The notes below the pieces were generated by a model, which saw only the letters and a program-made list of their open reading frames with translations, had not been told where the DNA came from and did no database searches. A stretch of DNA of 64,000 bases from an uncultured virus (IMG/VR IMGVR_UViG_3300042343_001542) (lineage: Duplodnaviria; Heunggongvirae; Uroviricota; Caudoviricetes), in the IMG/VR virus record IMGVR_UViG_3300042343_001542; one strand, 5' to 3'. Shown piece by piece: positions 2,276 to 45,945 of the stretch (the stretch's first letter is position 1; the number at the start of each line of letters is the position of its first letter). A program made the position numbers and the translations under genes.

Positions 2276-2986
2276 ATGAATTATAGAAAAATATACGACA
2301 ACATTATTGAAAATAGGTTAAAAACTCCGTTTGATGGATATACCGAAAAACATCATATAATTCCAAAAAGTATTGGTGGTAGTGATTTAAAAGAAAATTT
2401 AGTTTGTTTGAGTGCTAGAGAACATTTTGTTTGTCATTATCTCTTAACAAAGATGTTCCAACCAAAAACTAAAGAATTTTATTCGATGATTAAAGCGTTT
2501 TTAATAATGAGCGCAAACAGCGAATATCAAGATAGGTATTTTAATTCTAGATTATATGAAAGTTGTAGAACAAAATTTTCGCAAGCACAATCCTTTTGCC
2601 AAAAAGGAAATAAAAATTCCCAATATGGGACTATGTGGATTGTTAATTTAGATTTAAGGTTAAATAAAAAGATAAAAAAAGAACAAGAAATACCAGAAGG
2701 ATGGATAAAAGGATATGTAACAAATTTTGATGCGTATCTTGAAAAAATCAAGAAGGTAAAACGGGTCAAGAAAATAAAAAAAGAGAAAAAAGAAAAAGAG
2801 TTTTTTGATTATGTTGACTATTATACGAGATTATATAAAATATATAATGAATATGGTTTTGAATATTTGGTAGAAAATACAGGGTATGATAAATCCAAAC
2901 AAAATTTTGTTATGAGGTGTGCTAAATATGTAAAAGATTTTGTTCCGCAGAATGGAAAACCTAGAGGAACAAATAAAAAAATTTAA
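2276..2986 (+). CDS. HNH (Mob-like) homing endonuclease
   Basis: YTEKHHIIPKSIGG.D...NLV.LSAREHFVCH.LL. Confidence 0.9.
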   Translation: MNYRKIYDNIIENRLKTPFDGYTEKHHIIPKSIGGSDLKENLVCLSAREHFVCHYLLTKMFQPKTKEFYSMIKAFLIMSANSEYQDRYFNSRLYESCRTKFSQAQSFCQKGNKNSQYGTMWIVNLDLRLNKKIKKEQEIPEGWIKGYVTNFDAYLEKIKKVKRVKKIKKEKKEKEFFDYVDYYTRLYKIYNEYGFEYLVENTGYDKSKQNFVMRCAKYVKDFVPQNGKPRGTNKKI

Positions 2987-12906: not shown

Positions 12907-14076
12907 TTAAAATTTCTTATACCCCATTTTCGCAAGAGCATCATCCCTTTCTTTGGTTCCCTGTGGAGGAAGTTTAACGCCAGTTATTTGTTTTGATGAT
13001 GCTTGTTTCCAATCTTGTGGTTTAACATAATCAACATTTTTTGCTTTTTGTAACGGTATGTCTAATCCAGTATTTTTGTGCGGCATTGCAAGGGAATCTA
13101 CCTTACCCCTGGAAACGTTTACTGTTCTTAATTCTCCGCTTGGACCTTTTGAAACTCCAGCGGTAACAAAACCTCCATCTTTATTTGGATCAACATTTGG
13201 ATCAACAGCAGCAAAGGGTTTGGATGCTGCATTTGGTCCTCCTCCCGCAGGAGGACCAGCAAATGGGGGTTTTCCTCCGCCAGGAGGTTTTCCACCAATA
13301 CCACCTTTTGGTGGAGGTGGCGCAACTTGCGCTTTTGTTTTAGTATCAGTTTTTGTTTTAGTATCAGTTTTTGTTTGTGTGTTTTGTTTTAATTCTTGCG
13401 CCCTTTTTTCTCTTTGATCTCTATCAAATTTTAGTTTTTTAATTCTTTCCAAAGAAGTTGATGTTTGTTTTTTTGTTTCTGGTTCAACATCAATTGTTTT
13501 TCCCGTTTTGGGTTTCGTCGAAACCCCAGTTCCTGTTTTTTGTTTTGGAATATAATCCCCTTCTAACGGTTTGTTATTTTGTAAATATCTTGTTCTTTGT
13601 TTTGGTCCCATAGAAGAAGTTGGATTTGCTTCTCTATGTTTTTGCATTTGTTTTTGATATTCTGGATCTTCTTCCGCATTACCCAATTCGCTTGGAGTGA
13701 GCGTTAAAGAAGCGATATTTGCTACTCTTCCTATTTTTGATAATTTATCCAAAACTCCTGACGTTTTTGTTTTTGGAACAACTCTCGTCGAAGAGGAAGT
13801 TGTTGTTTTCGGTTCTGTTACAGAACCGTTTTGTGGTTTCGGAGCAGTTTGGTTTGTTGTTGCTGGAAGATTAGTTGTTTGTGGTGGAGAAACTGTTTGC
13901 GTTGGTAGATTTTGCGGTCTAGAAGAAACAGCAGGCAAGTTTGCAGATGAAGACCCAGCACCAATAGATTGACCCATTTGCTGGGCAAGTCTATCCATTG
14001 AAGCAGAAGAAACCTTTGCCTTTACCTTTCTTGAAGATTCTTCTATTTGTTGCTTAAATTCTTTGTACGATTTCAT
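12907..14076 (-). CDS. Low-complexity K/T/P/G-rich protein, putative internal head protein
   Basis: MKSYKEFKQQIEE N-terminus; disorder-prone composition. Confidence 0.65.
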   Translation of the reverse strand: MKSYKEFKQQIEESSRKVKAKVSSASMDRLAQQMGQSIGAGSSSANLPAVSSRPQNLPTQTVSPPQTTNLPATTNQTAPKPQNGSVTEPKTTTSSSTRVVPKTKTSGVLDKLSKIGRVANIASLTLTPSELGNAEEDPEYQKQMQKHREANPTSSMGPKQRTRYLQNNKPLEGDYIPKQKTGTGVSTKPKTGKTIDVEPETKKQTSTSLERIKKLKFDRDQREKRAQELKQNTQTKTDTKTKTDTKTKAQVAPPPPKGGIGGKPPGGGKPPFAGPPAGGGPNAASKPFAAVDPNVDPNKDGGFVTAGVSKGPSGELRTVNVSRGKVDSLAMPHKNTGLDIPLQKAKNVDYVKPQDWKQASSKQITGVKLPPQGTKERDDALAKMGYKKF

Positions 14077-14088
14077 TTTTTATAACCC

Positions 14089-15015
14089 TTACAGTTGAGG
14101 TCCAGAACCGGAAAACGAACCAGAAAACTTTCCAGCAGCGGATTTCATTTTTCCGGTTTCTTTTGCTGCTGATGCGGTTGCATCTTTCATCTTTGCAGCG
14201 CTTGCTCTTAAATCTGCCATAAAAGCATCATTTGAAGAACTAGAGGTTTTCTGTTTTGGTTGACCGGAAGGTATGGTCTTCTTAACGACAGGTTGTGGTT
14301 TAGTCTGCATTCTTTCTTTTGATGCAGACCCAGAAGAAGGTACTGAATTCTTTCCAATATTTCTTATTTCTGAGGTTTGTTGTTGCTTTTGTTCTGGTCT
14401 TCCCAAAGCGGCGTTTAGTTTATCACCAGAAGTATCAAGTTTTTTATCAAAACTTGTATTTTTATTTAATTGAGATTTTTCTTGTTTTCTCTTCTCTAAT
14501 TCTGCTGGAGTTACCGCTCTATTGACACTTTTTAAATTCTTTTCTGCTTTCTGTTGCGCTAATTGTCCGAATGCATTAGAAACCCCTCCAGAAATACCAC
14601 CTAATATCCCGCTCGCCATTGCATTTTTGGGTTTTCCAGTAAGAGCGCCATAACCCACCCCAGTTGCAGCACCTTTCTCTACGCTCTTTCTAAGGGAAGA
14701 AAACCTATCAGAAAGTTTTGCATTACCAGGAACATTTGTTCCGCTTTTAAATTCGCTAGAACCAGAAACCATTGATGCAACAGGAGCAACTCCTCTTGCA
14801 ACGGTTTGCGCAGACCTTAATGCAGAAGACTTTCCAGCAACAGAAGAAGTTGGTCCAGACAATCTCAATTGAGAATTTCTTGCTTTTGGTAATGCCATTT
14901 TTGCTGATCTTCTTTGACTCAATTTCATTCTAGCAGGAGTATCAACAGAACTACCAATAACAGAAACATTACTTGCTTCTGTAATTTCTTTTCTTAATTC
15001 TTTAAACGTTTTCAT
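14089..15015 (-). CDS. Low-complexity S/K/A/G-rich protein, putative internal head protein
   Basis: MKTFKELRKEITE N-terminus; late promoter at 15046-15053. Confidence 0.65.
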   Translation of the reverse strand: MKTFKELRKEITEASNVSVIGSSVDTPARMKLSQRRSAKMALPKARNSQLRLSGPTSSVAGKSSALRSAQTVARGVAPVASMVSGSSEFKSGTNVPGNAKLSDRFSSLRKSVEKGAATGVGYGALTGKPKNAMASGILGGISGGVSNAFGQLAQQKAEKNLKSVNRAVTPAELEKRKQEKSQLNKNTSFDKKLDTSGDKLNAALGRPEQKQQQTSEIRNIGKNSVPSSGSASKERMQTKPQPVVKKTIPSGQPKQKTSSSSNDAFMADLRASAAKMKDATASAAKETGKMKSAAGKFSGSFSGSGPQL

Positions 15016-15045
15016 TCCAGAAATACCTTATTGTTTTGATTAAAG

Positions 15046-15067
15046 TATTTATAAAAAAATATAAATA
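15046..15067. promoter_or_regulatory. Back-to-back late promoters
   Basis: TATTTATA 15046-15053 and TATAAATA 15060-15067. Confidence 0.75.
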
Positions 15068-15118
15068 AACCAAGAGGAACAAATTCCTTCTTGTTTATTA
15101 TTTTTATTGGAGAAAACT

Positions 15119-15283
15119 ATGATTAATCTAAACCTTGAAATTGCTGAAGTGAATGGCGTATTAACTGCACTAGGACAAATGCCCTACGCACAAGTAACAG
15201 AACTTGTTGAGAAAATTAAACAACAAGCAATCCCACAAGTTCAAGCACAACAACAAGAAGTTTCAGAAAATAACGAAGAGTAA
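15119..15283 (+). CDS. Small protein preceding the adhesin (54 aa)
   Basis: GGAG RBS; MINLNLEIAEVNGVLTALGQMPYAQV...; absent from the ORF track. Confidence 0.7.
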   Translation: MINLNLEIAEVNGVLTALGQMPYAQVTELVEKIKQQAIPQVQAQQQEVSENNEE

Positions 15284-15286
15284 GAA

Positions 15287-16219
15287 ATGACTACAAATTT
15301 AACAGCTATTTTAGGCGGTTCATCTGGTGGATCGTGGAAATCACAGACATTTACTACTTCGGGAACATGGGTAAAACCAGAAGGCGTTGAGGTGGTAAAA
15401 GTCGTCATGGCTGGTGGCGGTGGGGGCGGCGGTTATTGGGATTCTCCCGGTGGAAGTGGAGGAAACTCAATTTTCTATGCTCCAATACCTATTTATGCTT
15501 CTGGCGGTTTTGGTGCTCTAAGAGCAGATTTCTCTGCATGGAACGAAAATATTATAAATGGTTGGGGCGGTAATGGTGGTGGCGTATCTGGGGGAGAAGT
15601 TCTTTTGCTTCACACATCCGGAATTATTCTCGGTAGCCCTCCACAAGTAATAACAAACACAAATTCTGGTAAATCCTATACAACCAATAACGGAACGAGA
15701 GTTAAAACTCATGGAGGCGCAGGTATGCCGTCCGGAAATTCTATCTCTGGTGCTGGTGGAGCCGCTGGTTCAAGACGTGGTGGAGCAATTCCCGGTTTCG
15801 GTAATTCCGGCACATCTGGTATATGGAATATCAATGATGATGATTCTGCGGAATACGGTCCCGGTGGTGGCGGTGGCGCTTCCTTTGGTGATGGAGGAAT
15901 GGGTGTCGGAAGACCAGCACGAAACACAACACCAACACAAGCAACTCCCGGCATTTTTGGTGGTGGTGGCGGCGGTGGCGCTTATATAAGAGCTAACAGA
16001 ACCACATTTAATTTCATCGGCGGTCCAGGTGGCGGTGGCGGAGAAATCGTAATTCGTGATGTTCCCGTAAAAGACGTGGCTTCCGTTTTTGTGGCTATAG
16101 GTGCCGGTGGTGCTCCTGCCACTCAATCAGGAACGTCAAATAATACGTGGAGAGGTGGAATAACTACAGTTGCTCCTTCTGCTGGTGGTGCTGGTATTTG
16201 TCAAATTTTTTGGAGTTAA
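15287..16219 (+). CDS. Glycine-rich tail fibre/adhesin-like protein
   Basis: FTTSGTW..P.GV....V...GGGGGGG with multiple poly-Gly loops. Confidence 0.75.
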   Translation: MTTNLTAILGGSSGGSWKSQTFTTSGTWVKPEGVEVVKVVMAGGGGGGGYWDSPGGSGGNSIFYAPIPIYASGGFGALRADFSAWNENIINGWGGNGGGVSGGEVLLLHTSGIILGSPPQVITNTNSGKSYTTNNGTRVKTHGGAGMPSGNSISGAGGAAGSRRGGAIPGFGNSGTSGIWNINDDDSAEYGPGGGGGASFGDGGMGVGRPARNTTPTQATPGIFGGGGGGGAYIRANRTTFNFIGGPGGGGGEIVIRDVPVKDVASVFVAIGAGGAPATQSGTSNNTWRGGITTVAPSAGGAGICQIFWS

Positions 16220-18610: not shown

Positions 18611-18847
18611 TTAATAAATGAAGATAACTTCGTCAATAGGTGTTATGTAGAGTTCTCCTTCAACCTTGGTTGCGGCATTCCAATTTAGGAATACTGTATC
18701 TTCTACATTTACTTCTGTAACATCGGGACCAATCGCTAATACTTTGCCTTTGTCTTGGTCTAGAGTTGATTTTAGGATTATGCCTGATTCTGTTTCTTTT
18801 GAACCTGGGATTCTTTCAATTAGAATATTATTTAGAGTTGGTTTCAT
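18611..18847 (-). CDS. groES: GroES/Cpn10 co-chaperonin
   Basis: KP....ILIER......TESGIIL...GKVLAIGP...V.V.D.V. Confidence 0.85.
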   Translation of the reverse strand: MKPTLNNILIERIPGSKETESGIILKSTLDQDKGKVLAIGPDVTEVNVEDTVFLNWNAATKVEGELYITPIDEVIFIY

Positions 18848-19168: not shown

Positions 19169-19594
19169 TCATGGTAGAAGGTTTGGGAATGTTTCCTTTA
19201 TTAGAGAGTACGTTAGACCTTTAGTTTTAAGATCTTTGTTGAATAGATTAATAAGTGTTTGTGCTTCAGCAGGTTCCAAAGATTCTAGAAGTTGAAGAAG
19301 GAGATTGTTTCGTTTTTCAATTGTGAGAGAATCTGCTGTTTCGTTTCCAATTTGAAATAGATATAGACGTTTCAATTCGCAAGGAAGAGTAGAGAAAGAG
19401 ATACCTGGAAGAGTATCTGGTTCTTTATATCCTTCTGGGAAAGAAGAAGGGTAGAATCTAATATCAGGGTGGAAAGCTAGAGAGAGAAATTGCTTCAGTA
19501 GAGGAGAAGCGTATTGTAGAAGAATAGATTGCTTCTCTTTCTTAGAAGGAGAATTAGAAATTTGGTTGAGGATTTCGTAAAAATTAATGTTCAT
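19169..19594 (-). CDS. Conserved T4-like phage hypothetical protein
   Basis: EIL......SKKEK..IL...QLLESL...EA..L...KDL...GLT. Confidence 0.7.
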   Translation of the reverse strand: MNINFYEILNQISNSPSKKEKQSILLQYASPLLKQFLSLAFHPDIRFYPSSFPEGYKEPDTLPGISFSTLPCELKRLYLFQIGNETADSLTIEKRNNLLLQLLESLEPAEAQTLINLFNKDLKTKGLTYSLIKETFPNLLP

Positions 19595-19719
19595 AATATG
19601 TAGTAGGAAAAAGAGGAGAGTTTGTTCTCTCCTCTAATGTTAAATGGATTTATTGCTATATAACAGGTAACTTCAAAACCTAATCTGATATCATTAAAAT
19701 TCGGTTTTTCCCATTTCAT
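19591..19719 (-). CDS. pqqA: PqqA-like PQQ precursor peptide
   Basis: MKWEKPNFNDIRLGFEVTCY matches the PqqA pattern W.KP.F.D.R.G.EV..Y with E-x-x-x-Y; AAGGA RBS; C-terminus longer than usual. Confidence 0.88.
   Translation of the reverse strand: MKWEKPNFNDIRLGFEVTCYIAINPFNIRGENKLSSFSYYIL
19608..19635 (-). terminator. Intrinsic terminator after the pqqA core
   Basis: AGAGGAGAG/CTCTCCTCT stem plus T-run on the minus strand. Confidence 0.75.
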
Positions 19720-19749
19720 AATTATATCCTTTATTGATTTTAATCTACT

Positions 19750-19774
19750 AAAAGGGAGGGAACGAATCCCCCCC
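19750..19774 (-). terminator. Terminator-like hairpin between pmoC and pqqA
   Basis: G-run-A-TTCG-TTCCCTCCC-TTTT on the minus strand. Confidence 0.7.
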
Positions 19775-19791
19775 AATATTATAAGATACCT

Positions 19792-20571
19792 TTACTTTGC
19801 TACTGCACCAGCATCAACTGCTTCTACAATATCATTGCCGATTAGACCAGCAAAAGATGAGAAGACTTGAAGCAATACACCAGCAATAGCTAAAGCAAGC
19901 CAGCCAAAGAACACAAACCCATAGTGTAAAGGGGCAACGAAAAGTTCCTCCATAAACCAGAATGTGTGACCCCATTCATTTAGACCTACATTTGGTAGAA
20001 TCATGAATGGACCTACAACAGTTACTAGGTAAGGAAGAGATAGACCTTCTGCGAAATAAGGAAGTCTAGTCTTTGCATATAGGAATGATGCAAACCCAGT
20101 GATGATGTAGATTGGGTAAGAAAGGTAGAACTCAATGATATGACTTGGAGTAAAATCAGTATCTCTAACGATAGTCTGATGCCAAGTACCATCTTGTTCA
20201 GTAAAGTAGGAAGCACCCCAATAGATTGCATTTGCATAAGCAAATAACCAAACTAGGTGTGTCATATTACGACGCAATTCTTCACGCGGAGTAATTGCAG
20301 CCATATTACGATCACGAGACTTCCAAATATAACCCCAAAGAATTGAAGCTGTGACAACTTCTAATACAATTTCTGTATATAGAAAGTTCATCCAGTAAGT
20401 TTCAAATTCTGGAGCAAAAGAATCTAGACCAGCACTCCATCCGAATACGCCTTCATACCAACGTACCCAAGCATAGAATACTGCATAAACAGCGAAAGCA
20501 AAACCAAGCCACTTTTTATTCAATAGTGGTTGTTCTGCCGATACATCTACAGTTTTACTAATAGTAGCCAT
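19792..20571 (-). CDS. pmoC: Particulate methane monooxygenase subunit C
   Basis: GLDSFAPEFETYWMN, EQDGTWHQTIVRDTDFTPSH and NEWGHTFWFMEELFVAPLHYGF signatures; full length with GAGG RBS. Confidence 0.98.
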   Translation of the reverse strand: MATISKTVDVSAEQPLLNKKWLGFAFAVYAVFYAWVRWYEGVFGWSAGLDSFAPEFETYWMNFLYTEIVLEVVTASILWGYIWKSRDRNMAAITPREELRRNMTHLVWLFAYANAIYWGASYFTEQDGTWHQTIVRDTDFTPSHIIEFYLSYPIYIITGFASFLYAKTRLPYFAEGLSLPYLVTVVGPFMILPNVGLNEWGHTFWFMEELFVAPLHYGFVFFGWLALAIAGVLLQVFSSFAGLIGNDIVEAVDAGAVAK

Positions 20572-20682: not shown

Positions 20683-20919
20683 TTAAATAAATTCTATTCC
20701 TAGAAAAATTCTTTTAAAAGAAATTTGATTTAATTGATATGAATATCCAAAAGCAAAATTTATCCCAAACAACCTTTTAACCTTTTTGTATTTAACAAAA
20801 TTGCAAGGAAGAATAATATCCACAACTTTAACTGGCGTACCTTTTGGATCATTTCCACACCAACTTTCTGTATGTTTATAATAAACTCGTCCTTTCTTTA
20901 TCATATCAAAATTCTTCAA
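20683..20919 (-). CDS. Hypothetical protein
   Basis: ORF overlapping the rnh stop. Confidence 0.5.
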   Translation of the reverse strand: MKNFDMIKKGRVYYKHTESWCGNDPKGTPVKVVDIILPCNFVKYKKVKRLFGINFAFGYSYQLNQISFKRIFLGIEFI

Positions 20920-21754
20920 TACATTCCAATAAAGAAATCAATTTCTTAGAAACAAAGTATTTGTAGAGGTTTTGTTTAGTTGCGGGTTTAATCCTATCGA
21001 ACTCATTAATAATTTGTTGTCGAATATCTTCTGGAATGTAATCAAAATCAATTAACATTTGGTTACGCTTATAATTACGCAACATTTCTTCATTACAAAA
21101 CTCTTTAGGATCTTGTTCTAACCAATCATTAAGCTTCTTGGAAGAAATAGGTTTTTGTCTAGTTTTTAGAACAAACACTTCATCTTCAGACAAGAAATTG
21201 GGGATACCGTCACCAGCGTCTCCACGAATAATTTTTTCTTTTAAATCTTTAACAGGATTTTTCGATGTAACAAAAACTCCCATCATGGGGTTATATTGTT
21301 TAACATTAGGATATTTCTGTAATTGTACAAAATCTTTATCAGAAGAAATGATCAAAACTTTTTCATGCGGAGAAATTCTTGGGGTTAAAGTACCAATAAT
21401 GTCATCCGCTTCAGTAGAATCAACCTCAATAACCCTATAAGGAAAATGGTTCTTTAAATCTTCCTTCAACTCGTTAAGAACTTTAAAAATCAAATTCCAA
21501 TCAAGAGAAGATTTTTCTCTTGATTCCTTACGATGCGCTTTGTAGTGAGGATAAATTTGTTTGCGCCAATAATGTCTTGAATCTAGACATAGAACTACAT
21601 CACCGTATTCTGATTTGAATTTCTTAATATGAGAGCGTAAAGTGTTTAGTACAATATGTCTAATTAGATCTTCTTCTAATTGTTTAAACTTATTAGAAGA
21701 AATTTGGGACAAAAGTCCAGAGATAAAAACTTGATTTGTGTCTATTAAAATCAT
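20906..21754 (-). CDS. rnh: T4-type RNase H (5'-3' exonuclease)
   Basis: LID.NQ, WRK..YP.YKA.R, EADDII, SSDKDF.QL, GD.GDGIPN. Confidence 0.95.
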   Translation of the reverse strand: MILIDTNQVFISGLLSQISSNKFKQLEEDLIRHIVLNTLRSHIKKFKSEYGDVVLCLDSRHYWRKQIYPHYKAHRKESREKSSLDWNLIFKVLNELKEDLKNHFPYRVIEVDSTEADDIIGTLTPRISPHEKVLIISSDKDFVQLQKYPNVKQYNPMMGVFVTSKNPVKDLKEKIIRGDAGDGIPNFLSEDEVFVLKTRQKPISSKKLNDWLEQDPKEFCNEEMLRNYKRNQMLIDFDYIPEDIRQQIINEFDRIKPATKQNLYKYFVSKKLISLLECIEEF

Positions 21755-28299: not shown

Positions 28300-29142
28300 T
28301 TATTCACCTTTATTAAATTTATACTCAATATCTGCCCTATGTTGTTTCCAACCCCTAAAGTTTTTATGATATTCTTTATCTTTTGTTGGAGTTGCTTGAT
28401 GTTCTGTTGGAGAAGCATGAATTGGTACAGAACCAACCAAATCGTCATACAATTTAAAATCCTTTTCTTTTGATGGTTTTTTTCCATCATGAGTTAGATA
28501 ACTCACCCTAGCACATCTTGCTCCCGACATTTTAATACAATCAATCATAAGATTATTACAAATTTCATTATCTGTAACGTAAGGTAAATGCCAATCCCCA
28601 TAATTCAATTTTGTAGGGACTGAATTAAGATATTCTCCATACATTTCACAAGTAAGGGCATAAATTTCTGGTTGAGCATCGCTATGCATTCTTAATTCAA
28701 AGAAATTATCCCATTCAGTAGATGTTACAATAGTCTTAGTCCACATCCAAGGTTCAATAATTCTATTAGAAATTTGCTTATGCAATCCAATTTTATTTAA
28801 AGCATAAGCAACTAAACAAGCAGGGTATCTAGCAAAACTCCAAAGAAATTTAGCGATTGACAGTTCCCCGCCAGATAGTTCTTCTTTTGCTTGCATCCCG
28901 GGTTGATTCTTACCCCAAAAAACTGGAATAACTGGGTCAGAAATAACATCAGCAATCATTTTCTTAACTGGGATTGCTCTGGATGAAGCGGAATTTCTAG
29001 AAAATACTCTATGTGTGTTGAACTCAGATAAAATGAACCTACAATAACGAAGCTCGAAAGTTGTTAACCTAACCCCTAAAGGAGAGATACTATCGCAAAT
29101 AATTTTAGCACTAATTCCGCCATTATCATTCTTTTTAGACAT
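28300..29142 (-). CDS. thyX: FAD-dependent thymidylate synthase
   Basis: EFNTHRVFSRNSASSRA, HKQ..NR, CARVSY, HASP.EH. Confidence 0.93.
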   Translation of the reverse strand: MSKKNDNGGISAKIICDSISPLGVRLTTFELRYCRFILSEFNTHRVFSRNSASSRAIPVKKMIADVISDPVIPVFWGKNQPGMQAKEELSGGELSIAKFLWSFARYPACLVAYALNKIGLHKQISNRIIEPWMWTKTIVTSTEWDNFFELRMHSDAQPEIYALTCEMYGEYLNSVPTKLNYGDWHLPYVTDNEICNNLMIDCIKMSGARCARVSYLTHDGKKPSKEKDFKLYDDLVGSVPIHASPTEHQATPTKDKEYHKNFRGWKQHRADIEYKFNKGE

Positions 29143-30157
29143 ATTTAAACCCATTCTCTTTTTTTGTTTTATTAAAATTATACCCAATCATTTCTAATTC
29201 TGAAACTAAAAAATATAATGATTTTCTATTTTTTCTTATTTTCGTATTTAAATTATCAAAAAAACTAATATCACAGTTATATTTTTCACAAAATCTTCTC
29301 GGACTATTAAAAATACCTAGAGGAGTTTCTATCATTTTATCAGTTTTGTTTAAAATTGTCAATGAAGTTTTTAGGTTTAATCTACCAAACTTCCACCCAT
29401 CTGGTAAACAATCAGTTATTTTGTTTATCATTTTTGAATCTACTCCATTATTGATCCAAACAAAAGGTGTTCCTATAGTATAATTCTCAGGAATATTATT
29501 TTTATCAATTTTTAAAACAATACCAGTTATATTACAATAACAACTAATTTTACCTACATTCTTATCATTTCCTTTATTAGCATTTGGGTTTCCTTTAACA
29601 TATCCCACCGGAGGGGTATCAAAATTTTTTATGGAGATAACTTTTCCAGTTTTTGGGTTATGGTAATAAACATTATTTTTATGCATACCAGAAAACTTTT
29701 TCTTAGTTTCTGGAGAAGAACCTTTAATCCAATTATCGGGTTGAGCACCCTTTTCATAAAATTTTGAAATTCCCGTCAAGGGATCATAATATTTTTCTTT
29801 ATTTTCGTTTGGACAAACTCTACCAGTAAATTTTTCTTTACATAATTGGGAATTGTACTCTTTTAATAAACTATATACCCAAGAATTTATTTTATAATTT
29901 CTATCTTGATTTCCATTAGAAACTCGCATACATATAAAAGCGTATTTTAATTTATCATCGTCAGACATTTTAGTTAAAAGAAGATGGCAAATGAAATGCT
30001 CTCTAGCAGAGAGTTTTATCAGGTTTTCTTTATCATCTGAACCCCCTAAACATTTTGGTATTATATGATGATTTTCAGTATATCCATCATAAGTTTTATT
30101 CTTTGAATTTTCTACAATTGAAAAATAGATTTTTTTATATTTGTTTTCTTTAAACAT
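29135..30157 (-). CDS. HNH homing endonuclease with repeated C-terminal modules
   Basis: YTENHHIIPKCLGG.D...NL..LSAREHFICHLLL; repeated Y....TG...P..W/Y..G units. Confidence 0.9.
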   Translation of the reverse strand: MFKENKYKKIYFSIVENSKNKTYDGYTENHHIIPKCLGGSDDKENLIKLSAREHFICHLLLTKMSDDDKLKYAFICMRVSNGNQDRNYKINSWVYSLLKEYNSQLCKEKFTGRVCPNENKEKYYDPLTGISKFYEKGAQPDNWIKGSSPETKKKFSGMHKNNVYYHNPKTGKVISIKNFDTPPVGYVKGNPNANKGNDKNVGKISCYCNITGIVLKIDKNNIPENYTIGTPFVWINNGVDSKMINKITDCLPDGWKFGRLNLKTSLTILNKTDKMIETPLGIFNSPRRFCEKYNCDISFFDNLNTKIRKNRKSLYFLVSELEMIGYNFNKTKKENGFKYV

Positions 30158-32982: not shown

Positions 32983-33609
32983 CTAATTATTCTTATTTTT
33001 ACAATTATCGCCATGCCATCTTGAATAATTCCTAATATCAATATGTTTTCCGCAAAATTCGCAGGTTTTCTTTGGCGCGTTTAATGTATTGATTCTCATA
33101 ATTTCTATATGAGAATCACTTTTTTTCTTTCCTGATAAAGCTCTTGATATCGCTGCTCTACTATCATTTCTTTTAGAAGGATTATTTTCTCCCTCCATCA
33201 ATTTAGAATGATCTGGTCTTGAAATTCCTTTTAATTTTGAAGGCTTTCCTCTGTTTGGTGAAGGTTTATTCCACATATGGTTCAAACAGCCAGTTTGAGA
33301 TTCTGAAAAGGCTTTTCTGGCAATTTCAAATTGTTTTGAATTGAAATTTCTTTCTTGACTTTTATTTTTGCTTTTGGTCATTTTGTGGAAAGCTAAAGCA
33401 CTCGGTCTGGTTTTATAGTGTTTCCATAATAACCAATGAGCAACAAAATGTTCTCTTGCTGTCAATAATACCAAATTATCTTTTGAATTATTTCCACCCA
33501 ACCATTTTGGAATAATATGATGCTTTTCAAAATATTCTGTTCCGCCCTTTTTCCTACCAATTAATTTTTTGGAAGAAATTAATTTTTCGTAATGTTTCAA
33601 ATAATTCAT
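32983..33609 (-). CDS. HNH homing endonuclease
   Basis: EKHHIIPKWLGG.N..DNLV.LTAREHFVAHWLL; C-terminal CxxC...H...C. Confidence 0.9.
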   Translation of the reverse strand: MNYLKHYEKLISSKKLIGRKKGGTEYFEKHHIIPKWLGGNNSKDNLVLLTAREHFVAHWLLWKHYKTRPSALAFHKMTKSKNKSQERNFNSKQFEIARKAFSESQTGCLNHMWNKPSPNRGKPSKLKGISRPDHSKLMEGENNPSKRNDSRAAISRALSGKKKSDSHIEIMRINTLNAPKKTCEFCGKHIDIRNYSRWHGDNCKNKNN

Positions 33610-37860: not shown

Positions 37861-39762
37861 TTAACCTAATATCCACTTAACCTTTTCAAACGTAGTAGAA
37901 CATTCTTTTAACGGTTTGCTTCTTTCTTTAATTTTTTGCATCAAACCTTTCGCGTCTTCGTGAGAAAAGTTTGGATGTAATAATTTTTTGAATTGTGCAA
38001 CGTGTTCTGGATTATTATGATCTAAAGATCTTGCGGTTTGTCTCATTACGGAACCAGAAGTTTTCCCTCTTGGGTTTCCAATAAATTTGGCAGACTCGTA
38101 ATCCATTCGGAGATCACCACCTCTTTTATTCCCTTGTTCGTCCACCGATTCTGGAAAAGAAGATTTATTATATTTATCAACTAATCCCTTATAACTATCT
38201 ATAGAACCACCAGCAGAAGATTTAGATTTAACGCCTTCTTCCCCTTCTCCCGCATGAACTGTTATATGAACTTTTCTACCTGGTTTCTTTAAAGAATGCC
38301 AAGTATGGACTAACGCCTTTAATGGGTTCTTTGTGTGTCTATCAGTCCCAGCAACAAAAGAATCAGCCTTTTCTGGATATAATTTCTTTAATTGAGATAT
38401 TTTTTCTTCAACCGTTAATGGATCTTTGTCTGTAGTTTTTTCTTTTGACTCCGGACCCATAACGTAAACTCTATGAGAATGTGCTGGAGTATCAAAAACT
38501 CTATTCAAAAGTTTATGATGTTCCTCTGTAGGTCCAGTAAACCTCCCAGCAGCAAATACCACATGATGGTGTTCTTCTTCCGATTCTTTTAGTCCAGAAT
38601 CTTCGTCTGTTGGAGCGGTGTTCTTTTTAAATTTGGATTTTGCATTATTTGGGTCATAATATTCTTTTCTCTTTTGATTTACTTCTGATTCTATAGCAGA
38701 AGATTCTCCAGGAAAATGTAATTTTAAATGATTCCAAGCAGCGTCTTTTGCCGTTTTATCCATTTCTGGATCATTACCCAAAGACTGAGAAGAATGGTGC
38801 CACAATTTATTAGCAAAAGTCTTTATAATTTTTCCGTGATGTTCTTGAGGAAGATGTTTTTTTATGTGATCTATAACCCCACCAAAAGAACCAATATCTT
38901 CATGATCCTGTTCGGAACCTTCTCTATTAAACATTGATTTATAAATTGTTGGAATGTCTTTAGTGTAAGAAGCTCCTTTTGAGGGTATTTCCCTCACTAT
39001 TGGCTTTCCACTTTCATGGGTTCCAATATTTTCCCATTTTTGGCGTAACCCTTTATCCACGGAAAACGTGTGTGGCGGCACTTCTGCTTCTTCTTGGGTT
39101 TCAGTTTTCGCTTTACCTCGCCCTTTCATTGAAGAAATAATTGAAGGTTTAGAATGGGCGTGAAATGCTGATTGGATTAATTCTTTATGAAAGCGACCTT
39201 TTATACCATGCTCCATATCTCCAATATGACTAGAATGAGCCAATTGTTCGAATTTAGTTGGCTCTTGAGATTTTTCGTCATATTCTACGGGTTCAAAATC
39301 TATTTGGTGGTGTTTACCCGTATCTAAATGTTGTACCACTGCATGAGTTTGGTTCCCTGTAGTTCTTGTGTGTAAAACCTTAAATCTCCCATGAGTATCT
39401 CCGGGTTTTAAAAACTGGTTCAATTTTTCTCTATGTTGTTCTGGAATTTGAACGTCAAAATCGCCGAGTTTTGGTTTAATTTTTGTAAACTTTTCTGTTG
39501 GAATATTCTTATCCATATAAGGTCTAGCAGAACCGGAATAAGCAGACCCGGTTTTTAAAGAATTTCCAAATAAAGAATGACCGTGTTGCTTTTGTACGCC
39601 TTGGTCTATAGAACTAAAAAAATCATGAAAGTGCCCAGAATGGGTATCCCTATTATTAGTATCTACACTATCAGAAGTTCTTGTACCTTTAGAAGCGTCA
39701 TTTGCGTCTACTGGATATGGTAGATTTCCACCTTCAGAAATGAATTTTTTAAATCTAATCAT
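37861..39762 (-). CDS. Two-domain protein: Pol-beta-like nucleotidyltransferase plus cytidylyltransferase-like domain
   Basis: YSGS...GDFDVQI...QIDF; VFAAGRFTGPT..H.KL, DPL...EK, SGS.MR. Confidence 0.65.
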   Translation of the reverse strand: MIRFKKFISEGGNLPYPVDANDASKGTRTSDSVDTNNRDTHSGHFHDFFSSIDQGVQKQHGHSLFGNSLKTGSAYSGSARPYMDKNIPTEKFTKIKPKLGDFDVQIPEQHREKLNQFLKPGDTHGRFKVLHTRTTGNQTHAVVQHLDTGKHHQIDFEPVEYDEKSQEPTKFEQLAHSSHIGDMEHGIKGRFHKELIQSAFHAHSKPSIISSMKGRGKAKTETQEEAEVPPHTFSVDKGLRQKWENIGTHESGKPIVREIPSKGASYTKDIPTIYKSMFNREGSEQDHEDIGSFGGVIDHIKKHLPQEHHGKIIKTFANKLWHHSSQSLGNDPEMDKTAKDAAWNHLKLHFPGESSAIESEVNQKRKEYYDPNNAKSKFKKNTAPTDEDSGLKESEEEHHHVVFAAGRFTGPTEEHHKLLNRVFDTPAHSHRVYVMGPESKEKTTDKDPLTVEEKISQLKKLYPEKADSFVAGTDRHTKNPLKALVHTWHSLKKPGRKVHITVHAGEGEEGVKSKSSAGGSIDSYKGLVDKYNKSSFPESVDEQGNKRGGDLRMDYESAKFIGNPRGKTSGSVMRQTARSLDHNNPEHVAQFKKLLHPNFSHEDAKGLMQKIKERSKPLKECSTTFEKVKWILG

Positions 39763-39763
39763 T

Positions 39764-40648
39764 TTATTGATTCCTTTGATTTTTTTGATCTTGTTTGAAA
39801 CTTTTAAAAGCAGAAGATTGAATTTTTATTCTTCCGTTTGGTGTGTGAAATACGTCCCCTTCCGATTCTCCTTCTACTTCCCAATGTCTGGGTTTTACGC
39901 CAGAAGCGTGTTGCGATAGTTTACTTTCCAAAGAAGATTTGATAGAGTTCAGCTTTATCTTTTCTTGTTCTTTTGCTTCTTTATCTGCAGATTTTCTTGA
40001 CTTTAATAATTCTGGATTAATTTCAGAATGAGCTTTCTTTTCATCAGAAACGTCTATATCAAAAGAATTTCCTTCTGATTTATCGTGATCGAACGTCACG
40101 TGGTGATCGCCCAACTTTTCAATATCTTCTGGTTTATGTGTGGAATTTTCTGGGAGTTGGTGATGAAGAATAAACATCCCAGATTTACCCATAGAATTTG
40201 GGTTATAAGAAGTATTTACGAATTTGATACCCTTATCGGTTTTTTGTCCAATTCCCCTAAGGAAAAACTCCCCTTTAATAGAAGAAGAAAGTCCTGATTC
40301 ATGTCTGGACTTCAAATAAGACATTAATTTTGGGTTATTGACTAACCTGTGATGTAGGTCGTCATATTGAGAAGAAACAGAAGTATCTGCGTCTGCCCCC
40401 CTTTTGTTTCTAGTATATGCAGAATAATCTCCAGCATTTCTTATTTTATCTGAATTTGCCGAGCGCGTATATGGACCTTCTTCGTCATACCCAACTTCAC
40501 CGGCAGCACCATCAGTTTTTCTGGTAGAAACACCAGACAAAACTTTACCTTTAAGGAGATTTCCCAATTTTTCGTGGTTTAAATCTCTTAAATTATCCAA
40601 TCCTTGTCGAAGTTTTTGTTCTAAAATAAATTGCTTAAAAGATAACAT
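39764..40648 (-). CDS. Ligase-superfamily (KxDG) protein
   Basis: KTDG, KGEFF, ESEGDVF, RIKIQS in ligase motif order. Confidence 0.55.
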   Translation of the reverse strand: MLSFKQFILEQKLRQGLDNLRDLNHEKLGNLLKGKVLSGVSTRKTDGAAGEVGYDEEGPYTRSANSDKIRNAGDYSAYTRNKRGADADTSVSSQYDDLHHRLVNNPKLMSYLKSRHESGLSSSIKGEFFLRGIGQKTDKGIKFVNTSYNPNSMGKSGMFILHHQLPENSTHKPEDIEKLGDHHVTFDHDKSEGNSFDIDVSDEKKAHSEINPELLKSRKSADKEAKEQEKIKLNSIKSSLESKLSQHASGVKPRHWEVEGESEGDVFHTPNGRIKIQSSAFKSFKQDQKNQRNQ

Positions 40649-40678
40649 TTTAAAATACTTGGATTAATTACAATAAAG

Positions 40679-40686
40679 TATTTATA
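40679..40686 (-). promoter_or_regulatory. Late promoter TATAAATA
   Basis: Exact match about 30 bp upstream of ORF 40648. Confidence 0.7.
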
Positions 40687-40692
40687 ATTATT

Positions 40693-41385
40693 TTAATCTA
40701 TATGTAATTCTCCCGTTGAAGCTACATACCCCTCGCAATGAATTTTGTCGAATTCGATAAGATGTCCTTTATTGATATTAACAAAATGTGCGTGCTCAGT
40801 ATCAATTCCTTTATTTAACAATTCAAAATTTTTTTGTAATGTGATTAAATAGTCATCTAATAAAGAAGGACAAAACGAAAATAATCTTGTTATTAACAAG
40901 TCTGTTGCTCCAGAAGCGTTCTGAATTTCTTTTGGTAACCAAGAGGGAATTCTTTTTCTAAAAACATATTTACCAAACAATCCTTCGTAATCATTAATAT
41001 CAAACGTTTTTTGAAGGTTATACCTTCCGCTTAATTTGAAAATTCGCTTGACAGAATGGAACAACTTCATTAATTCAATATTTTGCTTGAATTGGTATAA
41101 AGTATTTAATAGCAACACCGTTTCCGCTTGACTTTTTAACCCTTTATCTCCAAATTCTGTCGGACCGATATTTAAGAATATATCAATATATCCCTCAAAA
41201 GGTTTTAAATCTTCTTGGGTAATTGAATCTGAAGAAGAATCTGCAAAAAGGATTATAGAATTTGGAACCCTTTTTATACTCTTAAATGTTTCTAGCGTTT
41301 GGTTTATCCTAGTTGAATTATCAAAAATTCCAATTTTGGGTTTTAATGAAGAACTTACTATAAACAAATTTTTATCTGGGATCAT
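40693..41385 (-). CDS. Hypothetical protein, possibly glycosyltransferase-like
   Basis: R..QTL.T..SI, FKLSGRY motifs; in the sugar cluster. Confidence 0.55.
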   Translation of the reverse strand: MIPDKNLFIVSSSLKPKIGIFDNSTRINQTLETFKSIKRVPNSIILFADSSSDSITQEDLKPFEGYIDIFLNIGPTEFGDKGLKSQAETVLLLNTLYQFKQNIELMKLFHSVKRIFKLSGRYNLQKTFDINDYEGLFGKYVFRKRIPSWLPKEIQNASGATDLLITRLFSFCPSLLDDYLITLQKNFELLNKGIDTEHAHFVNINKGHLIEFDKIHCEGYVASTGELHID

Positions 41386-42404
41386 TATAAGTAGTCTCCC
41401 AAATTATCGGCATCTCTGAAAACGTTAATCGCCTCTGCTCTTGGATATGGATTCGCATGGTTATAATCATTAATCAATAATCTTCTAGCGTTTTGCAACC
41501 CGTAGATACATTGAAATTCATTAAACCCCAAACTCTTCAACATTTTTTCCGTGTCTTGTTTGGCAATTTCTGGTCTTGCTGTTGTGAATATAAACTGTGA
41601 TCCCTTATTATAAAATTCTAACAACAGTTTAACATTATTTTCGATTATTGTTGGTTGTAAATGCCAATCTCCATGAGATTGAGCTTTTACTATAGTCCCG
41701 TCAATGTCGCAAAATATAACTGGTCTATCGTTATATTCAAACCAATCTTTGGAAGTCCCTACGTCAATATAATTGGAAATGGACTTTTCGGAAAATACTT
41801 CTCCTTCTTGAATACAATTTTGTATCACATGAGAAACGAAGAATTCTGAATTTATCTGAATCTTTTCAAAAGAATCGCAAAAGAGTTTTGCAGACTTAAA
41901 GGCATATCCTCCAACACAAAACGTGTCAGAAACAACTTTCTTTTCAATGATGTTTTGAATAATACCTTGATCATTGGATATGGTAAAACTTTTAGAATAT
42001 AATTTCTTTAATACTTCATGTTCTGATATTCTAGAAACACAAACGTAATTATCAAAAGTGAGTTCGTGATCGAAAAAACTATCACAATCTTTTATAAGAA
42101 TGGGAGAATTTAAATCAATATTAGACTTTTTAATAATTTGATAGACAGTATCTGCTGGACCTCTTGTTAATTCATCTAATATAACAATATTAACTTTATC
42201 TCCAAGATAAGCCTTAATATGTTTCGTAGAGTTATACGTTTCTTCGTGCTCTTTCAATATACCAATAGTTATATTACAAGTATTCAAATAAGGGTTTATT
42301 GCCGATTGTAACATTATTTTCTTCTTGTAATCAGCAAGAAGATATTTTGGGCGCATATTAGGGAATCTTGAAGATAAACCTGCTGCCGGTACGATTATTT
42401 CCAT
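41385..42404 (-). CDS. Sugar NTP-transferase fused to a HAD-like phosphatase
   Basis: IVPAAG.SSRF...PK, T.GPA.T, DCD; C-terminal FCDIDGT, TTAR. Confidence 0.85.
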   Translation of the reverse strand: MEIIVPAAGLSSRFPNMRPKYLLADYKKKIMLQSAINPYLNTCNITIGILKEHEETYNSTKHIKAYLGDKVNIVILDELTRGPADTVYQIIKKSNIDLNSPILIKDCDSFFDHELTFDNYVCVSRISEHEVLKKLYSKSFTISNDQGIIQNIIEKKVVSDTFCVGGYAFKSAKLFCDSFEKIQINSEFFVSHVIQNCIQEGEVFSEKSISNYIDVGTSKDWFEYNDRPVIFCDIDGTIVKAQSHGDWHLQPTIIENNVKLLLEFYNKGSQFIFTTARPEIAKQDTEKMLKSLGFNEFQCIYGLQNARRLLINDYNHANPYPRAEAINVFRDADNLGDYL

Positions 42405-43135
42405 AATTTATTGATCTCTCTTTTCAAGAATAATTTTTCGAAACTATTAGGTTTAGCGTGTTTATAAACTCTTAATAGCATTAATATTAGCAAATAATCA
42501 TTATTCGCTTCTGGAAACTTGTTTAGTATTTCTTTTTCTATTTTGTTTAATTTTACATCTAAAGAAACTTTACTGTTTCGTAGAAACCATTTACATTTTA
42601 AATCTTGCCTAAGTTTAGCGATATCAAAAATGTAAGAATCATATTCTATAGAAACGGCATCTATTAAATAGAATTTTTTATCAGAACCATATAGAATATT
42701 TTCTAAAGTCAAATCTCCAAAATAATCACTTTGATGTAATTCTTTTGGTAGTTTTTCTATTAGGTCTTTCTTAGTAAAAGGTAGTTCGTCGAAGTCTATT
42801 TGTTCCAGCTTTTCTTTATATATGTTTTCGTAATTTACTAAATTTTTTTGGGAAGATAATTTAGTTAAAGTTTCTATTAAAAAGGAAATTAAGGTATTGA
42901 TAGAATTATTTTCAAGGTACGTTTTCATATCCAAAGAAGGAATGTATTCAATATCTAGAACATTCCCTTCTTTATTATAAATTTTTGGTATATTAAATCC
43001 GCAAGAAATTAAATGAGATATTCTTTCGTAATTTCTTTCTACATTTTCTATTTTTCGGACAAAAGTTTTAGAATTTTCTTCTATTAACAAAACCGTACTA
43101 CCAGAAAACCCGTTTAATGCCTTTATTACAGTCAT
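42395..43135 (-). CDS. APH/choline-kinase-like phosphotransferase
   Basis: GFSGS, GDLTLENIL, LID, DIAKL.QD. Confidence 0.8.
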   Translation of the reverse strand: MTVIKALNGFSGSTVLLIEENSKTFVRKIENVERNYERISHLISCGFNIPKIYNKEGNVLDIEYIPSLDMKTYLENNSINTLISFLIETLTKLSSQKNLVNYENIYKEKLEQIDFDELPFTKKDLIEKLPKELHQSDYFGDLTLENILYGSDKKFYLIDAVSIEYDSYIFDIAKLRQDLKCKWFLRNSKVSLDVKLNKIEKEILNKFPEANNDYLLILMLLRVYKHAKPNSFEKLFLKREINKLWK

Positions 43136-43818
43136 TTAGCCCATTTCTCGTAGTCTTCTCTAATCAAAGAATGCCAAGTGCCGTTATGAGGTCCAGGAGG
43201 AAAAGGGTTATTCATATCAACATATACAAGGTTTTCTCCAACCAAATTGTGATGTATAAGGTTTGCTTTTAACATTTCTTCTCCAATCATTTGAGTTCCT
43301 TGAGAATAATATTGATCAATATTTTCGTATGTGGACATGTATTTAATCATATTTTCCGCAGAAGAAAAGGCAAATTGGTCGTTTCCAAAATTTCTTTCTG
43401 GAACCATTCTACAATTAGGAATGTAAAGTTTATTGGTATGCATTTTCTCAAAGGCTATTTTTACATTAAGAGCATAATCGTATCTGGTCCTTATTACGAA
43501 ATCGTAATTAACCCCAAATTCTTGAAACAATTTTTTAGATTCATTTATTGAATAAAACGCCGAAAGAGTAAATCTTGGTGGCCATTTAGAAGCGTCAGGA
43601 GTATTTGTATACTTTTTATCTTCTTGTTCTGAGAACTTGGGGTCTTCAAATATATAAGATTTTGGTTTGTAAAGGTTTAGTATTTTATGGTTAAGTTCAG
43701 AATTCCAAGAATGACAAAATACGTCAACGTCATAAAAATCCAACAAATTGGTTTTGTAATAATGAAACGCCTTGGACAACCCTCTAGGTTGTCCCGACAA
43801 ACATAAAGCAATTTTCAT
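43132..43818 (-). CDS. Putative glycosyltransferase-like protein
   Basis: KIALCLSGQPR, DVF.HSW, YD.VIR.RYD, NDQFA. Confidence 0.6.
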   Translation of the reverse strand: MKIALCLSGQPRGLSKAFHYYKTNLLDFYDVDVFCHSWNSELNHKILNLYKPKSYIFEDPKFSEQEDKKYTNTPDASKWPPRFTLSAFYSINESKKLFQEFGVNYDFVIRTRYDYALNVKIAFEKMHTNKLYIPNCRMVPERNFGNDQFAFSSAENMIKYMSTYENIDQYYSQGTQMIGEEMLKANLIHHNLVGENLVYVDMNNPFPPGPHNGTWHSLIREDYEKWAK

Positions 43819-44504
43819 TTATAAAGCCTCACTGGAAAATTATATAAGTTAAACGGAACTCCGTTATTATATAGATTTCTTAATAACAACATGTGCGGGC
43901 AGTACCTTTCTTCTCTATGTATCCTTATATTTTCCGATCCGTATTGTTTAATTTTATCGAGGTAATACAAAAACCCTTCTTCAAAATCTGAAGAATGAAT
44001 TTTCTGAAAATGGTCAAACAAAAAATAATGTTTTGCGTACTTAAATGGAGATATGCAAAAAATATCAGAAATTAAATTGTAAGACTCTTCAAATGGAACA
44101 GATATAACATCAGACAAAGATATTATTTTGAATACATTAAAAAAATCTATATCGTATCTACAATATATGAAATTATCGTATTCTTCTTCAATAAGGTCTA
44201 AGGCTTGTTTTCTTCCAAAATTCATTGATGCGTGATTGGATAAAATATCCATAGTAGAAGGTTTTGGGTTTGTAAACCTTATACTGGACTCTATAGATTC
44301 AAAATATGGCTTATAACAATCAAAATCTTCAACTAATATTTTTTTGGGTTGAAGATTTTCAATAATATCATTAATTTCGCTTTCGTCAACAGACCATAAA
44401 TGACAATATACGTCTAAATCATTTAAAGCGATAAATTGTTTAATATTTTCTTTTGTTTTACCAAAAGTTCTATATTGTCCAGAGAAAATTATACAGTTTT
44501 TCAT
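43815..44504 (-). CDS. Paralogue of 43132-43818
   Basis: SGQ.R, DVY.H.W, YD..I..RYD, SD.F. Confidence 0.6.
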   Translation of the reverse strand: MKNCIIFSGQYRTFGKTKENIKQFIALNDLDVYCHLWSVDESEINDIIENLQPKKILVEDFDCYKPYFESIESSIRFTNPKPSTMDILSNHASMNFGRKQALDLIEEEYDNFIYCRYDIDFFNVFKIISLSDVISVPFEESYNLISDIFCISPFKYAKHYFLFDHFQKIHSSDFEEGFLYYLDKIKQYGSENIRIHREERYCPHMLLLRNLYNNGVPFNLYNFPVRLYK

Positions 44505-44509
44505 TTGGT

Positions 44510-45936: not shown

Positions 45937-45945
45937 AATACAACC

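Follow-up and report, generated by a model that had tools for sequence, protein, structure and literature searches.

A pqqA gene that has lost its stop codon lies beside pmoC in a T4-like phage with a putative methanotroph host

The closest described relatives of the locus considered here are T4-like phages from Lake Baikal that are predicted to infect Methylophilaceae. These phages carry a methanol dehydrogenase gene and, in the case of one population, a gene for PqqA, the precursor peptide of pyrroloquinoline quinone (PQQ); the viral PqqA gene was interpreted as an auxiliary one by which methanol oxidation is enhanced via PQQ (Coutinho et al. 2020, Microbiome 8:163, PMC7678222). A more recent paper lists viral pqqA among phosphate-related auxiliary genes (PMC13188868, 2026). 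In addition, Table S7 of the description of pmoC-phages by Chen et al. holds two single-member families with a Pfam PqqA match (lengths 36 and 43) from two curated genomes, filed under 'general function prediction only', and by term count the main text of that paper uses none of the terms pqq, pyrroloquinoline and methanol dehydrogenase (0 occurrences; Chen et al. 2020, Nat Microbiol 5:1504, PMC7674155). Here, a stretch of 64,000 nucleotides from an uncultured virus (IMG/VR record IMGVR_UViG_3300042343_001542; hereafter the window) is described, in which a short pqqA gene follows pmoC, the gene for one subunit of particulate methane monooxygenase (pMMO). The original prediction for this stretch, made from the sequence without database searches, took a phage pqqA to be undescribed, a belief contradicted by PMC7678222, PMC13188868 and Table S7 of PMC7674155. 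The phage gene and the underlying idea are already in print, and the gain reported here is one of breadth and detail, of modest novelty. Full-text literature searches turned up neither a further account of phage pqqA nor one that pairs it with pmoC; by term counts only, papers on OM43 phages mention PQQ solely in a medium recipe, and PMC12801897 and PMC11118758 contain PQQ or PqqA only in unrelated contexts.

The window resembles the Lake Baikal phages in its orphan pqqA, its T4-like, low-GC freshwater phage setting and its putative one-carbon (C1)-oxidising host. However, the Baikal phages have a predicted methylotroph host and a reported viral methanol dehydrogenase (PMC7678222), whereas the window points to a methanotroph, has pmoC as the partner of pqqA and has lost the pqqA stop codon. 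The Baikal arrangement, with a viral methanol dehydrogenase beside pqqA, was looked for in the contigs compared with the window and set aside (0/80 pqqA contigs, and 0/160 viral loci by tblastn). With the pmoC-phages of Chen et al., the window shares a large T4-like genome, a GC content of ~33%, many tRNAs and a stand-alone gamma-type pmoC, but the adjacency of pqqA to pmoC, the stop loss and the wider pqqA distribution given here are not described in the main text and Table S7 of that paper (PMC7674155). In the case of the OM43 phages, the likeness lies in an orphan pqqA, of 23-24 codons, in phages of C1 oxidisers; unlike the window, these phages have marine Methylophilales hosts and no pmoC. 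The chromosomal pqqA of Methylococcaceae has the same 24-residue design as the window copy, with Glu16 and Tyr20, yet it is the first gene of pqqABCDE, has a GC content at third codon positions (GC3) of 0.54-0.75 and is near pmoC in 0/80 loci, whereas the window copy stands alone with a GC3 of 0.21. As in the phage, pqqA is said to have a hairpin after it in bacteria. A functional analogy only is provided by cyanophage psbA (photosystem II D1), where the phage supplies a fast-consumed part of a host energy system and the host supplies the rest; D1 is a protein subunit turned over by damage, whereas PqqA is a substrate peptide consumed for a cofactor.

The reading we favour, with a probability of roughly 0.65, is that the window carries a pqqA captured from a Methylococcaceae methanotroph, which supplies the consumable PQQ precursor beside phage pmoC. 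The features that bear on this reading are as follows; window coordinates refer to the 64-kb stretch, and L or G numbers designate related contigs and loci compared with it.

19792..20571, minus strand: pmoC, stand-alone and intact, 259 amino acids plus stop (AmoC/PmoC models)
19754..19774, minus strand: terminator-like hairpin with U-run between pmoC and pqqA (fold energy -15.9 kcal/mol, z -2.7)
19727..19731, minus strand: ribosome-binding site (RBS) AAGGA, 7 nt 5' of the pqqA ATG (read directly in the sequence)
19648..19719, minus strand: pqqA core, 24 codons, MKWEKPNFNDIRLGFEVTCYIAIN (Glu16 at 19674-19672, Tyr20 at 19662-19660)
19591..19647, minus strand: read-through tail of 18 codons (PFNIRGENKLSSFSYYIL) plus TGA (translation; comparison with L001 and L004/L005)
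19605..19635, minus strand: terminator-like hairpin (AGAGGAGAG / CTCTCCTCT) with U-run, inside the read-through tail (scan and folding)
19169..19594, minus strand: downstream gene, 141 amino acids, DUF6433 / phrog_461, like a DNA-ligase N-terminal domain (Pfam DUF6433 53.0 bits; phrog_461 78 bits)

The pmoC, pqqA and DUF6433 genes all lie on the minus strand of the window. With the pmoC stop codon at 19792-19794 and the pqqA ATG at 19719-19717, the gap between the two genes is exactly 72 nt, and direct reading of the sequence bears out the RBS-led open reading frame (ORF) that had been proposed at this distance on the same strand. The translation starts MKWEKPNFNDIRLGFEVTCY, as predicted; the predicted length of ~24 codons, with an end soon after the Tyr, does not hold, since the frame runs for 42 codons to a TGA at 19593-19591.

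The pqqA-like identity proposed for the ORF is upheld by two curated family models, namely Pfam PqqA PF08042 (35.0 bits, cut-off 21.1, E 1.3e-8, all 19 model positions) and NCBIfam TIGR02107 (38.5 bits, cut-off 20, E 7.1e-10), length not being a defining feature of the PqqA family models. Judged by both models, the window ORF is a genuine PqqA. Moreover, a profile built from PqqA relatives and run across the whole window gave this ORF 64.8 bits, the runner-up scoring 4.3 bits, which places the match well outside chance. Residues W3, P6, D10, R12, G14, F15, E16, V17, T18 and Y20 are invariant in four phage and five host PqqA copies, and the window peptide has both the Glu-x3-Tyr pair and, ahead of it, the W-x2-P ... 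R-x-G-F leader. Glu16 and Tyr20 are the pair that PqqE cross-links with the help of PqqD, after which a protease, PqqB and PqqC complete PQQ, and the Glu16 and Tyr20 of the window are numbered as the cross-linked residues of that account (PMC10906245).

Window PmoC scores 408.7 bits against Pfam AmoC (PF04896; cut-off 26.7), 404.1 bits against NCBIfam AmoC_BACT (NF041641; cut-off 319) and 384.5 bits against TIGR03078 (cut-off 280.6), and its residues 10-259 align with residues 10-260 of PDB 7ev9_C at 486 bits, the central block being identical. Chains of pMMO structures score 348-487 bits against it, versus 238-249 bits for chains of ammonia monooxygenase (AMO). The best 80 cellular pmoC loci, at 71-91% identity, are nearly all titled as Methylococcales methanotrophs or as unclassified (gamma)proteobacterial metagenome-assembled genomes (MAGs), and none of these 80 bears an ammonia-oxidiser title. 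The top cellular relatives are Methylococcaceae (a Methylococcus sp. MAG, Ca. Methylumidiphilus, Methylotetracoccus and Methylocaldum), at 79-91% identity, the closest matches lying at 82-91%. By these comparisons, the window gene is a methanotroph-type pmoC, not amoC. Phages with amoC exist (preprint 10.64898/2026.06.18.733297), and the name of the top NCBIfam model, AmoC_BACT, suggested such a reading here, which was rejected because the nearest genomes and structures are those of methanotroph PmoC. General family scans found no AmoA/AmoB family among the window ORFs scanned; like other pmoC-phages, the window is a tailed T4-like phage with a stand-alone pmoC and no pmoA/pmoB family among the ORFs scanned.

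Inserts of ~240-260 nt interrupt pmoC in related viral contigs, and their sites differ, with four or more residue positions affected (after ~44, 128, 204, 207-209 and 223). The observation concerns 4113-4332 of L015, 4606-4812 and 4906-5120 of L018, 4599-4808 of L048, and 3485-3702 of L168. The PmoC coordinates run on across the gaps with nothing lost, and the Rfam group I intron model matches inside five of the inserts at 69-94 bits (gathering score 50), with no match in L034 and L042. The split genes are probably spliced and whole rather than broken. A literature search turned up no paper naming both 'pmoC' and 'group I intron'.

From the similarity of PmoC and PqqA alone, we infer that the host is a Methylococcaceae methanotroph. 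Exactly one PqqA above cut-off, 24 amino acids long, was found in each of five candidate Methylococcaceae genomes (5/5), and these host peptides share 12-15 of 22 core residues with the window peptide. Two other pmoC contigs, G030 and G031, encode a PqqA that is identical to that of Ca. Methylumidiphilus at 20 of 22. In Methylotetracoccus, pqqA lies directly before pqqB, followed by pqqC, pqqD and pqqE, and two PQQ dehydrogenases of the methanol/ethanol family score above cut-off. When host PqqB, PqqC, PqqD, PqqE and the two dehydrogenases were used as tblastn queries, there were 0 matches in the window and in 160 viral loci (154 distinct contigs, six being in both the pmoC and the pqqA set). 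The phage pqqA is an orphan, and not part of a pqqABCDE operon. Because the window lacks pqqB-E while candidate hosts carry pqqABCDE, host PqqB-E would be the sole route from peptide to PQQ, as had been proposed. The window thereby unites the traits by which a viral PqqA is classed as an auxiliary gene, namely an orphan pqqA, a phage context and a candidate host, assigned by similarity, with two PQQ dehydrogenases.

Cellular pmoC loci have pqqA within 2.5 kb in 0/80 cases, so the adjacency of pmoC and pqqA is a phage arrangement. The GC3 of window pmoC is 0.265 and that of pqqA 0.21, next to 0.24-0.33 for five phage core genes, as opposed to 0.60-0.94 for six host-type pmoC genes and 0.54-0.75 for five host pqqA genes. 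The phage junctions at pmoC and pqqA recur in L001, L002 and L251.

To gauge how often the two genes occur together, 122 viral relatives of window PmoC were collected, of which 80 were kept. Among these 80 contigs, pqqA lies within 4 kb of pmoC in four and anywhere on the contig in eight, and all eight belong to the 40 with closer PmoC (0 among the 40 at ~60-72% identity). The distance is 72-80 nt in the window, L001, L002 and L014; counted by lineage, two have pqqA within ~80 bp of pmoC and another two have it within ~2 kb. In L013, pqqA is ~2 kb from pmoC, behind a metallophosphoesterase and a glycosyltransferase gene; in L168 the distance is ~1.9 kb, and in G030 and G031 it is ~70 kb. The original prediction had cast pmoC and pqqA as a module, and the adjacency does recur, but the idea of a fixed two-gene unit is weakened by the count of 8/80 contigs and by the strong hairpin between the genes, which has a stronger analogue at the equivalent position of L014 (-27.1 kcal/mol for the stretch, z -5.4). 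The pairing is recurrent, and neither fixed nor required.

Phage pqqA extends well beyond pmoC-bearing contigs. A pattern search with a PqqA alignment returned 258 stretches and 167 relatives in viral contigs, and the best 80 of these relatives were analysed. One open pqqA copy is present in 80/80 of these loci, with 46 distinct peptides and a DNA GC content of 0.29-0.46; the cores comprise 52 distinct DNA sequences and 41 peptides, with a pooled ratio of nonsynonymous to synonymous polymorphism (pN/pS) of 0.29. Several codons are used at the invariant residues (Pro 3, Arg 6, Gly 4). The invariance of D, R, G, F and E is partly built in, as these residues are in the search pattern, whereas W, P and Y are absent from the DNA pattern. 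At the level of sequence, these figures demonstrate selection on the viral PqqA peptide. With regard to neighbourhoods, genes near pqqA fell into 330 clusters, and annotation of representatives from the largest 45 gave, among others, gp23, the T4 scaffold, prohead protease, the gp33 coactivator, gp59, gp32, UvsY, UvsW and RNase H. A T4-type hallmark lies within 3.5 kb of pqqA in 35/80 loci and another capsid or tail gene in 8, with none among the annotated clusters in the other 37.

Cultured phages carry the gene as well. A search of GenBank phages with the 24-residue PqqA query gave 10 records at a loose threshold, Microviridae and MW202481 among them; model scoring covered one of four Melnitz records, Venkman, MEP301 and a record labelled as an Acinetobacter phage. 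Three cultured OM43 phages score above the TIGR02107 cut-off, with 34.0 bits for Melnitz (MZ577097), 39.8 bits for Venkman (MT375522) and 35.2 bits for MEP301 (MW452941), the genes of 23-24 codons being located as follows.

L252 2501-2572, plus strand: pqqA of Melnitz
L253 2501-2569, plus strand: pqqA of Venkman
L254 2501-2569, plus strand: pqqA of MEP301

All three copies are unannotated in their GenBank records, in agreement with the earlier remark that so short a gene is easily missed; in Melnitz, a 'hypothetical protein' on the opposite strand overlies pqqA. The Venkman gene is followed by a hairpin with a U-run. A DNA search of GenBank phages with the 1.6-kb pmoC-pqqA region of the window gave no match.

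Two further observations were made in these searches. In L170, L177, L178 and neighbouring loci, genes for CsgG (curli secretion), a CHASE2-adenylate/guanylate cyclase and a FecR-domain protein lie within 3.5 kb of pqqA, each cluster occurring in six loci. In L255 (CAKLQF020000010.1 105704-110775), labelled 'Acinetobacter phage MD-2021a', ppk is followed by an unannotated pqqA and then by pqqBCDE, and this 144-kb contig looks like a bacterial chromosome, not a phage.

The window copy departs from the usual form of the gene in its length. Among the best 80 viral loci, 79 have a pqqA of 23-25 codons, the other being L166, which comes from the contig of L002 and has the same 42-codon allele as the window. 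In the sister contig L001, pqqA has 24 codons, ending ...IAIN and then TAA, with the same hairpin and the same downstream gene after the stop, and the 24-codon core of the window is 96% identical to it, with one residue different. In L004/L005, where PmoC is 98% identical, the DNA matching the window tail is plain intergenic spacer. Alignment of the versions in the window, L001 and L004/L005 shows that 4 nt are missing from the window precisely where the stop codon would be, and the 42-codon length is thus due to loss of the native stop. The tail hairpin (19635-19612) has a fold energy of -14.6 kcal/mol (z -4.8), and 0/200 shuffles fold as well. The TGA that now ends the frame overlaps the ATG of the downstream DUF6433 gene, creating the arrangement ATGA. 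Viral contig L002 and metagenome contig L251 also have the 42-codon allele, with no difference across the stretches read, although these samples are possibly non-independent.

Under the capture reading, pqqA would have been taken from a Methylococcaceae methanotroph and kept long enough to gain the base composition of the phage. During infection, the phage would transcribe pqqA, the N-terminal leader of the peptide would be bound by the host chaperone PqqD, host PqqE would cross-link Glu16 to Tyr20, and the host protease, PqqB and PqqC would complete PQQ. As one PqqA peptide would be consumed per PQQ molecule, the phage could keep the sole consumable part of the pathway supplied after host transcription has faded. 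The PQQ so made would sustain the periplasmic PQQ-dependent methanol dehydrogenase, which catalyses the step after pMMO, and phage PmoC would support pMMO itself. For the window allele, translation is predicted to add 18 residues, cross the terminator hairpin and end at the TGA that overlaps the next ATG. The identity of the gene, its intact core, its orphan status, its phage-like composition and long residence in phage genomes, its recurrence in phages of bacteria that subsist on PQQ-dependent methanol oxidation, and the loss of its stop are observed. Expression of pqqA, processing by host enzymes and a benefit to the phage are inferred, and the 42-residue product may be less than fully usable.

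A number of observations weigh against this reading. With regard to the pairing, only one of the five records that are at least 90% complete has pqqA and four are without it, and the pmoC contigs of at least 100 kb are divided between four with and seven without (n=11); indeed, because only 8/80 pmoC viral contigs have pqqA, the gene is dispensable for pmoC phages. L004/L005 hold a different 26-codon ORF in the pqqA slot, with no Pfam match (L004 4833-4913). As a hairpin stands between pmoC and pqqA, co-expression of the two genes is not assured. Furthermore, the window allele is atypical, and its stop lies 3' of a terminator-like hairpin, such that terminated transcripts would be stop-less. 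No methanol dehydrogenase is encoded by the 80 pqqA viral contigs (0/80), and the link between pqqA and that enzyme therefore rests on host biology. PQQ is stable and reusable, and a need for new synthesis in a short infection is an assumption. Finally, as regards expression, small sequence shares of four RNA or possibly-RNA runs gave only short contig pieces on conserved stretches of pmoC. Nearly all of these pieces show 90-95% likeness, they often pass into unlike sequence, and they are most likely host or other pmoC transcripts; there was no pqqA piece, which speaks neither for nor against expression.

Some of these points feed a different explanation, under which the window pqqA is a damaged allele on its way out, relatives have a working pqqA, and the window contributes little or no PQQ precursor, the 42-residue product being poorly processed or, if made from stop-less transcripts, tagged and degraded. 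The only other long copy in the best 80 viral loci (L166) is the same allele, the remaining 79 having 23-25 codons and 5/5 host copies 24; the tail derives from intergenic DNA and matches the L004/L005 spacer without a difference; the stop lies 3' of the stable U-run hairpin; and the slot is unstable, with sisters of 98% identical PmoC that lack pqqA. Yet the 24-codon core is untouched, a single residue off L001, the same allele is found in L002 and L251 (perhaps not independent samples), and many intergenic hairpins of T4-like phages permit read-through. In addition, the flanks of PqqA are cut away in maturation anyway (PMC10906245). On balance, we regard decay of the window allele as possible but unlikely. 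In L004/L005, the differences extend beyond the ORF to the pmoC 3' end and to the terminator hairpin, which marks the slot downstream of pmoC as a swap point.

It is improbable that phage PqqA serves some purpose other than precursor supply, either as a decoy that ties up host PqqD/PqqE or in making PQQ for another quinoprotein or for redox protection. Such a role would accord with the differences of phage from host copies at two core positions in 7/9 copies on pmoC contigs (Leu for Phe before GFEV; Cys, Thr or Leu for Met before Tyr), and with the lack of a viral methanol dehydrogenase alongside pqqA in 80 contigs. However, all family-invariant residues are retained, including Glu16 and Tyr20, the OM43 and putative Methylococcaceae hosts are C1 oxidisers dependent on PQQ methanol dehydrogenase, and a phage bearing pmoC has no obvious gain from blocking the next step. 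Still harder to credit is an assembly artefact, in which a host fragment with pmoC and pqqA was joined to phage DNA and for which no supporting observation emerged: in GC3, pmoC and pqqA resemble the phage rather than the hosts, host pqqA sits beside pqqB and within 2.5 kb of pmoC in 0/80 loci, and the same phage junctions occur in L001, L002 and L251. A host-phage chimera, named at the outset as an outcome that would undo the proposal, is excluded by this base composition and by the repeated junctions.

A broader version of the capture reading can be put forward more tentatively still, and we hold it to be rather doubtful as a whole. Since PQQ synthesis consumes none of its components stoichiometrically except PqqA, the supply of this peptide might be a general strategy of phages of C1 oxidisers, methanotrophs and methylotrophs alike, that annotation has for the most part overlooked; paired with pmoC, it might serve the chain from pMMO to methanol dehydrogenase and the return of electrons. 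The stop loss might then be a rewiring, whereby ribosomes moving along the 18-codon tail would unfold the terminator hairpin and terminate at the ATGA, and translation of pqqA would be coupled to read-through into, and translation of, the downstream gene.

The remainder of the window is in keeping with a T4-like phage, and the following features flank or precede the two genes.

20906-21754: rnh (5_3_exonuc_N 81.7 bits and T4 RNaseH_C 65.3 bits)
18611-18847: groES (Cpn10 29.4 bits)
20691..20718, minus strand: weak sigma-70-like promoter match (TTTAAA, 16 nt, TAGAAT), ~120 nt upstream of pmoC (consensus scan alone, 9/12 matches)

The immediate neighbours of pmoC are rnh, a 78-amino-acid ORF of no known family and pqqA. 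Family matches across the window confirm the T4-like surroundings that rnh and groES had suggested, and include gp43, gp45, gp44/62, regA, uvsX, gp41, gp61, gp46/47, nrdAB, td and mazG; there are also 12 tRNA genes, and the GC content is 0.33. No exact copy of the T4 late-promoter motif TATAAATA precedes pmoC or pqqA, the motif occurring 18 times in the window versus 11.7 expected by chance.

Elsewhere in the window, three homing-endonuclease ORFs of one family (phrog_655) are found at 2276-2986 (plus strand), 29135-30157 (minus strand) and 32983-33609 (minus strand), one of them inside the tRNA cluster and another overlapping by ~50 nt, at its 3' end, the start of thymidylate synthase (28300-29187). 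A run of ~11 genes at 37861-47051 (minus strand) encodes, among others, a cytidylyltransferase-like protein, a family 2 glycosyltransferase, a methyltransferase, a HAD-like hydrolase and several family-less ORFs, and may be a glycan- or DNA-modification block. At 12907-16219, the stretch of highest GC in the window (0.41), three ORFs of 308-389 amino acids are almost without family matches, the sole match being a glycine-rich domain in one of them.

Surveys of viral auxiliary genes undercount pqqA, because a gene of such small size escapes gene callers and is passed over in GenBank records; it is unannotated in three cultured OM43 phages, and at least 167 viral contigs encode a PqqA relative. 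Phages with pmoC are believed to increase the oxidation of lake methane. Should a number of these phages also help to provide the cofactor for the enzyme that acts next, the viral contribution to methane turnover would extend beyond a single enzyme subunit.

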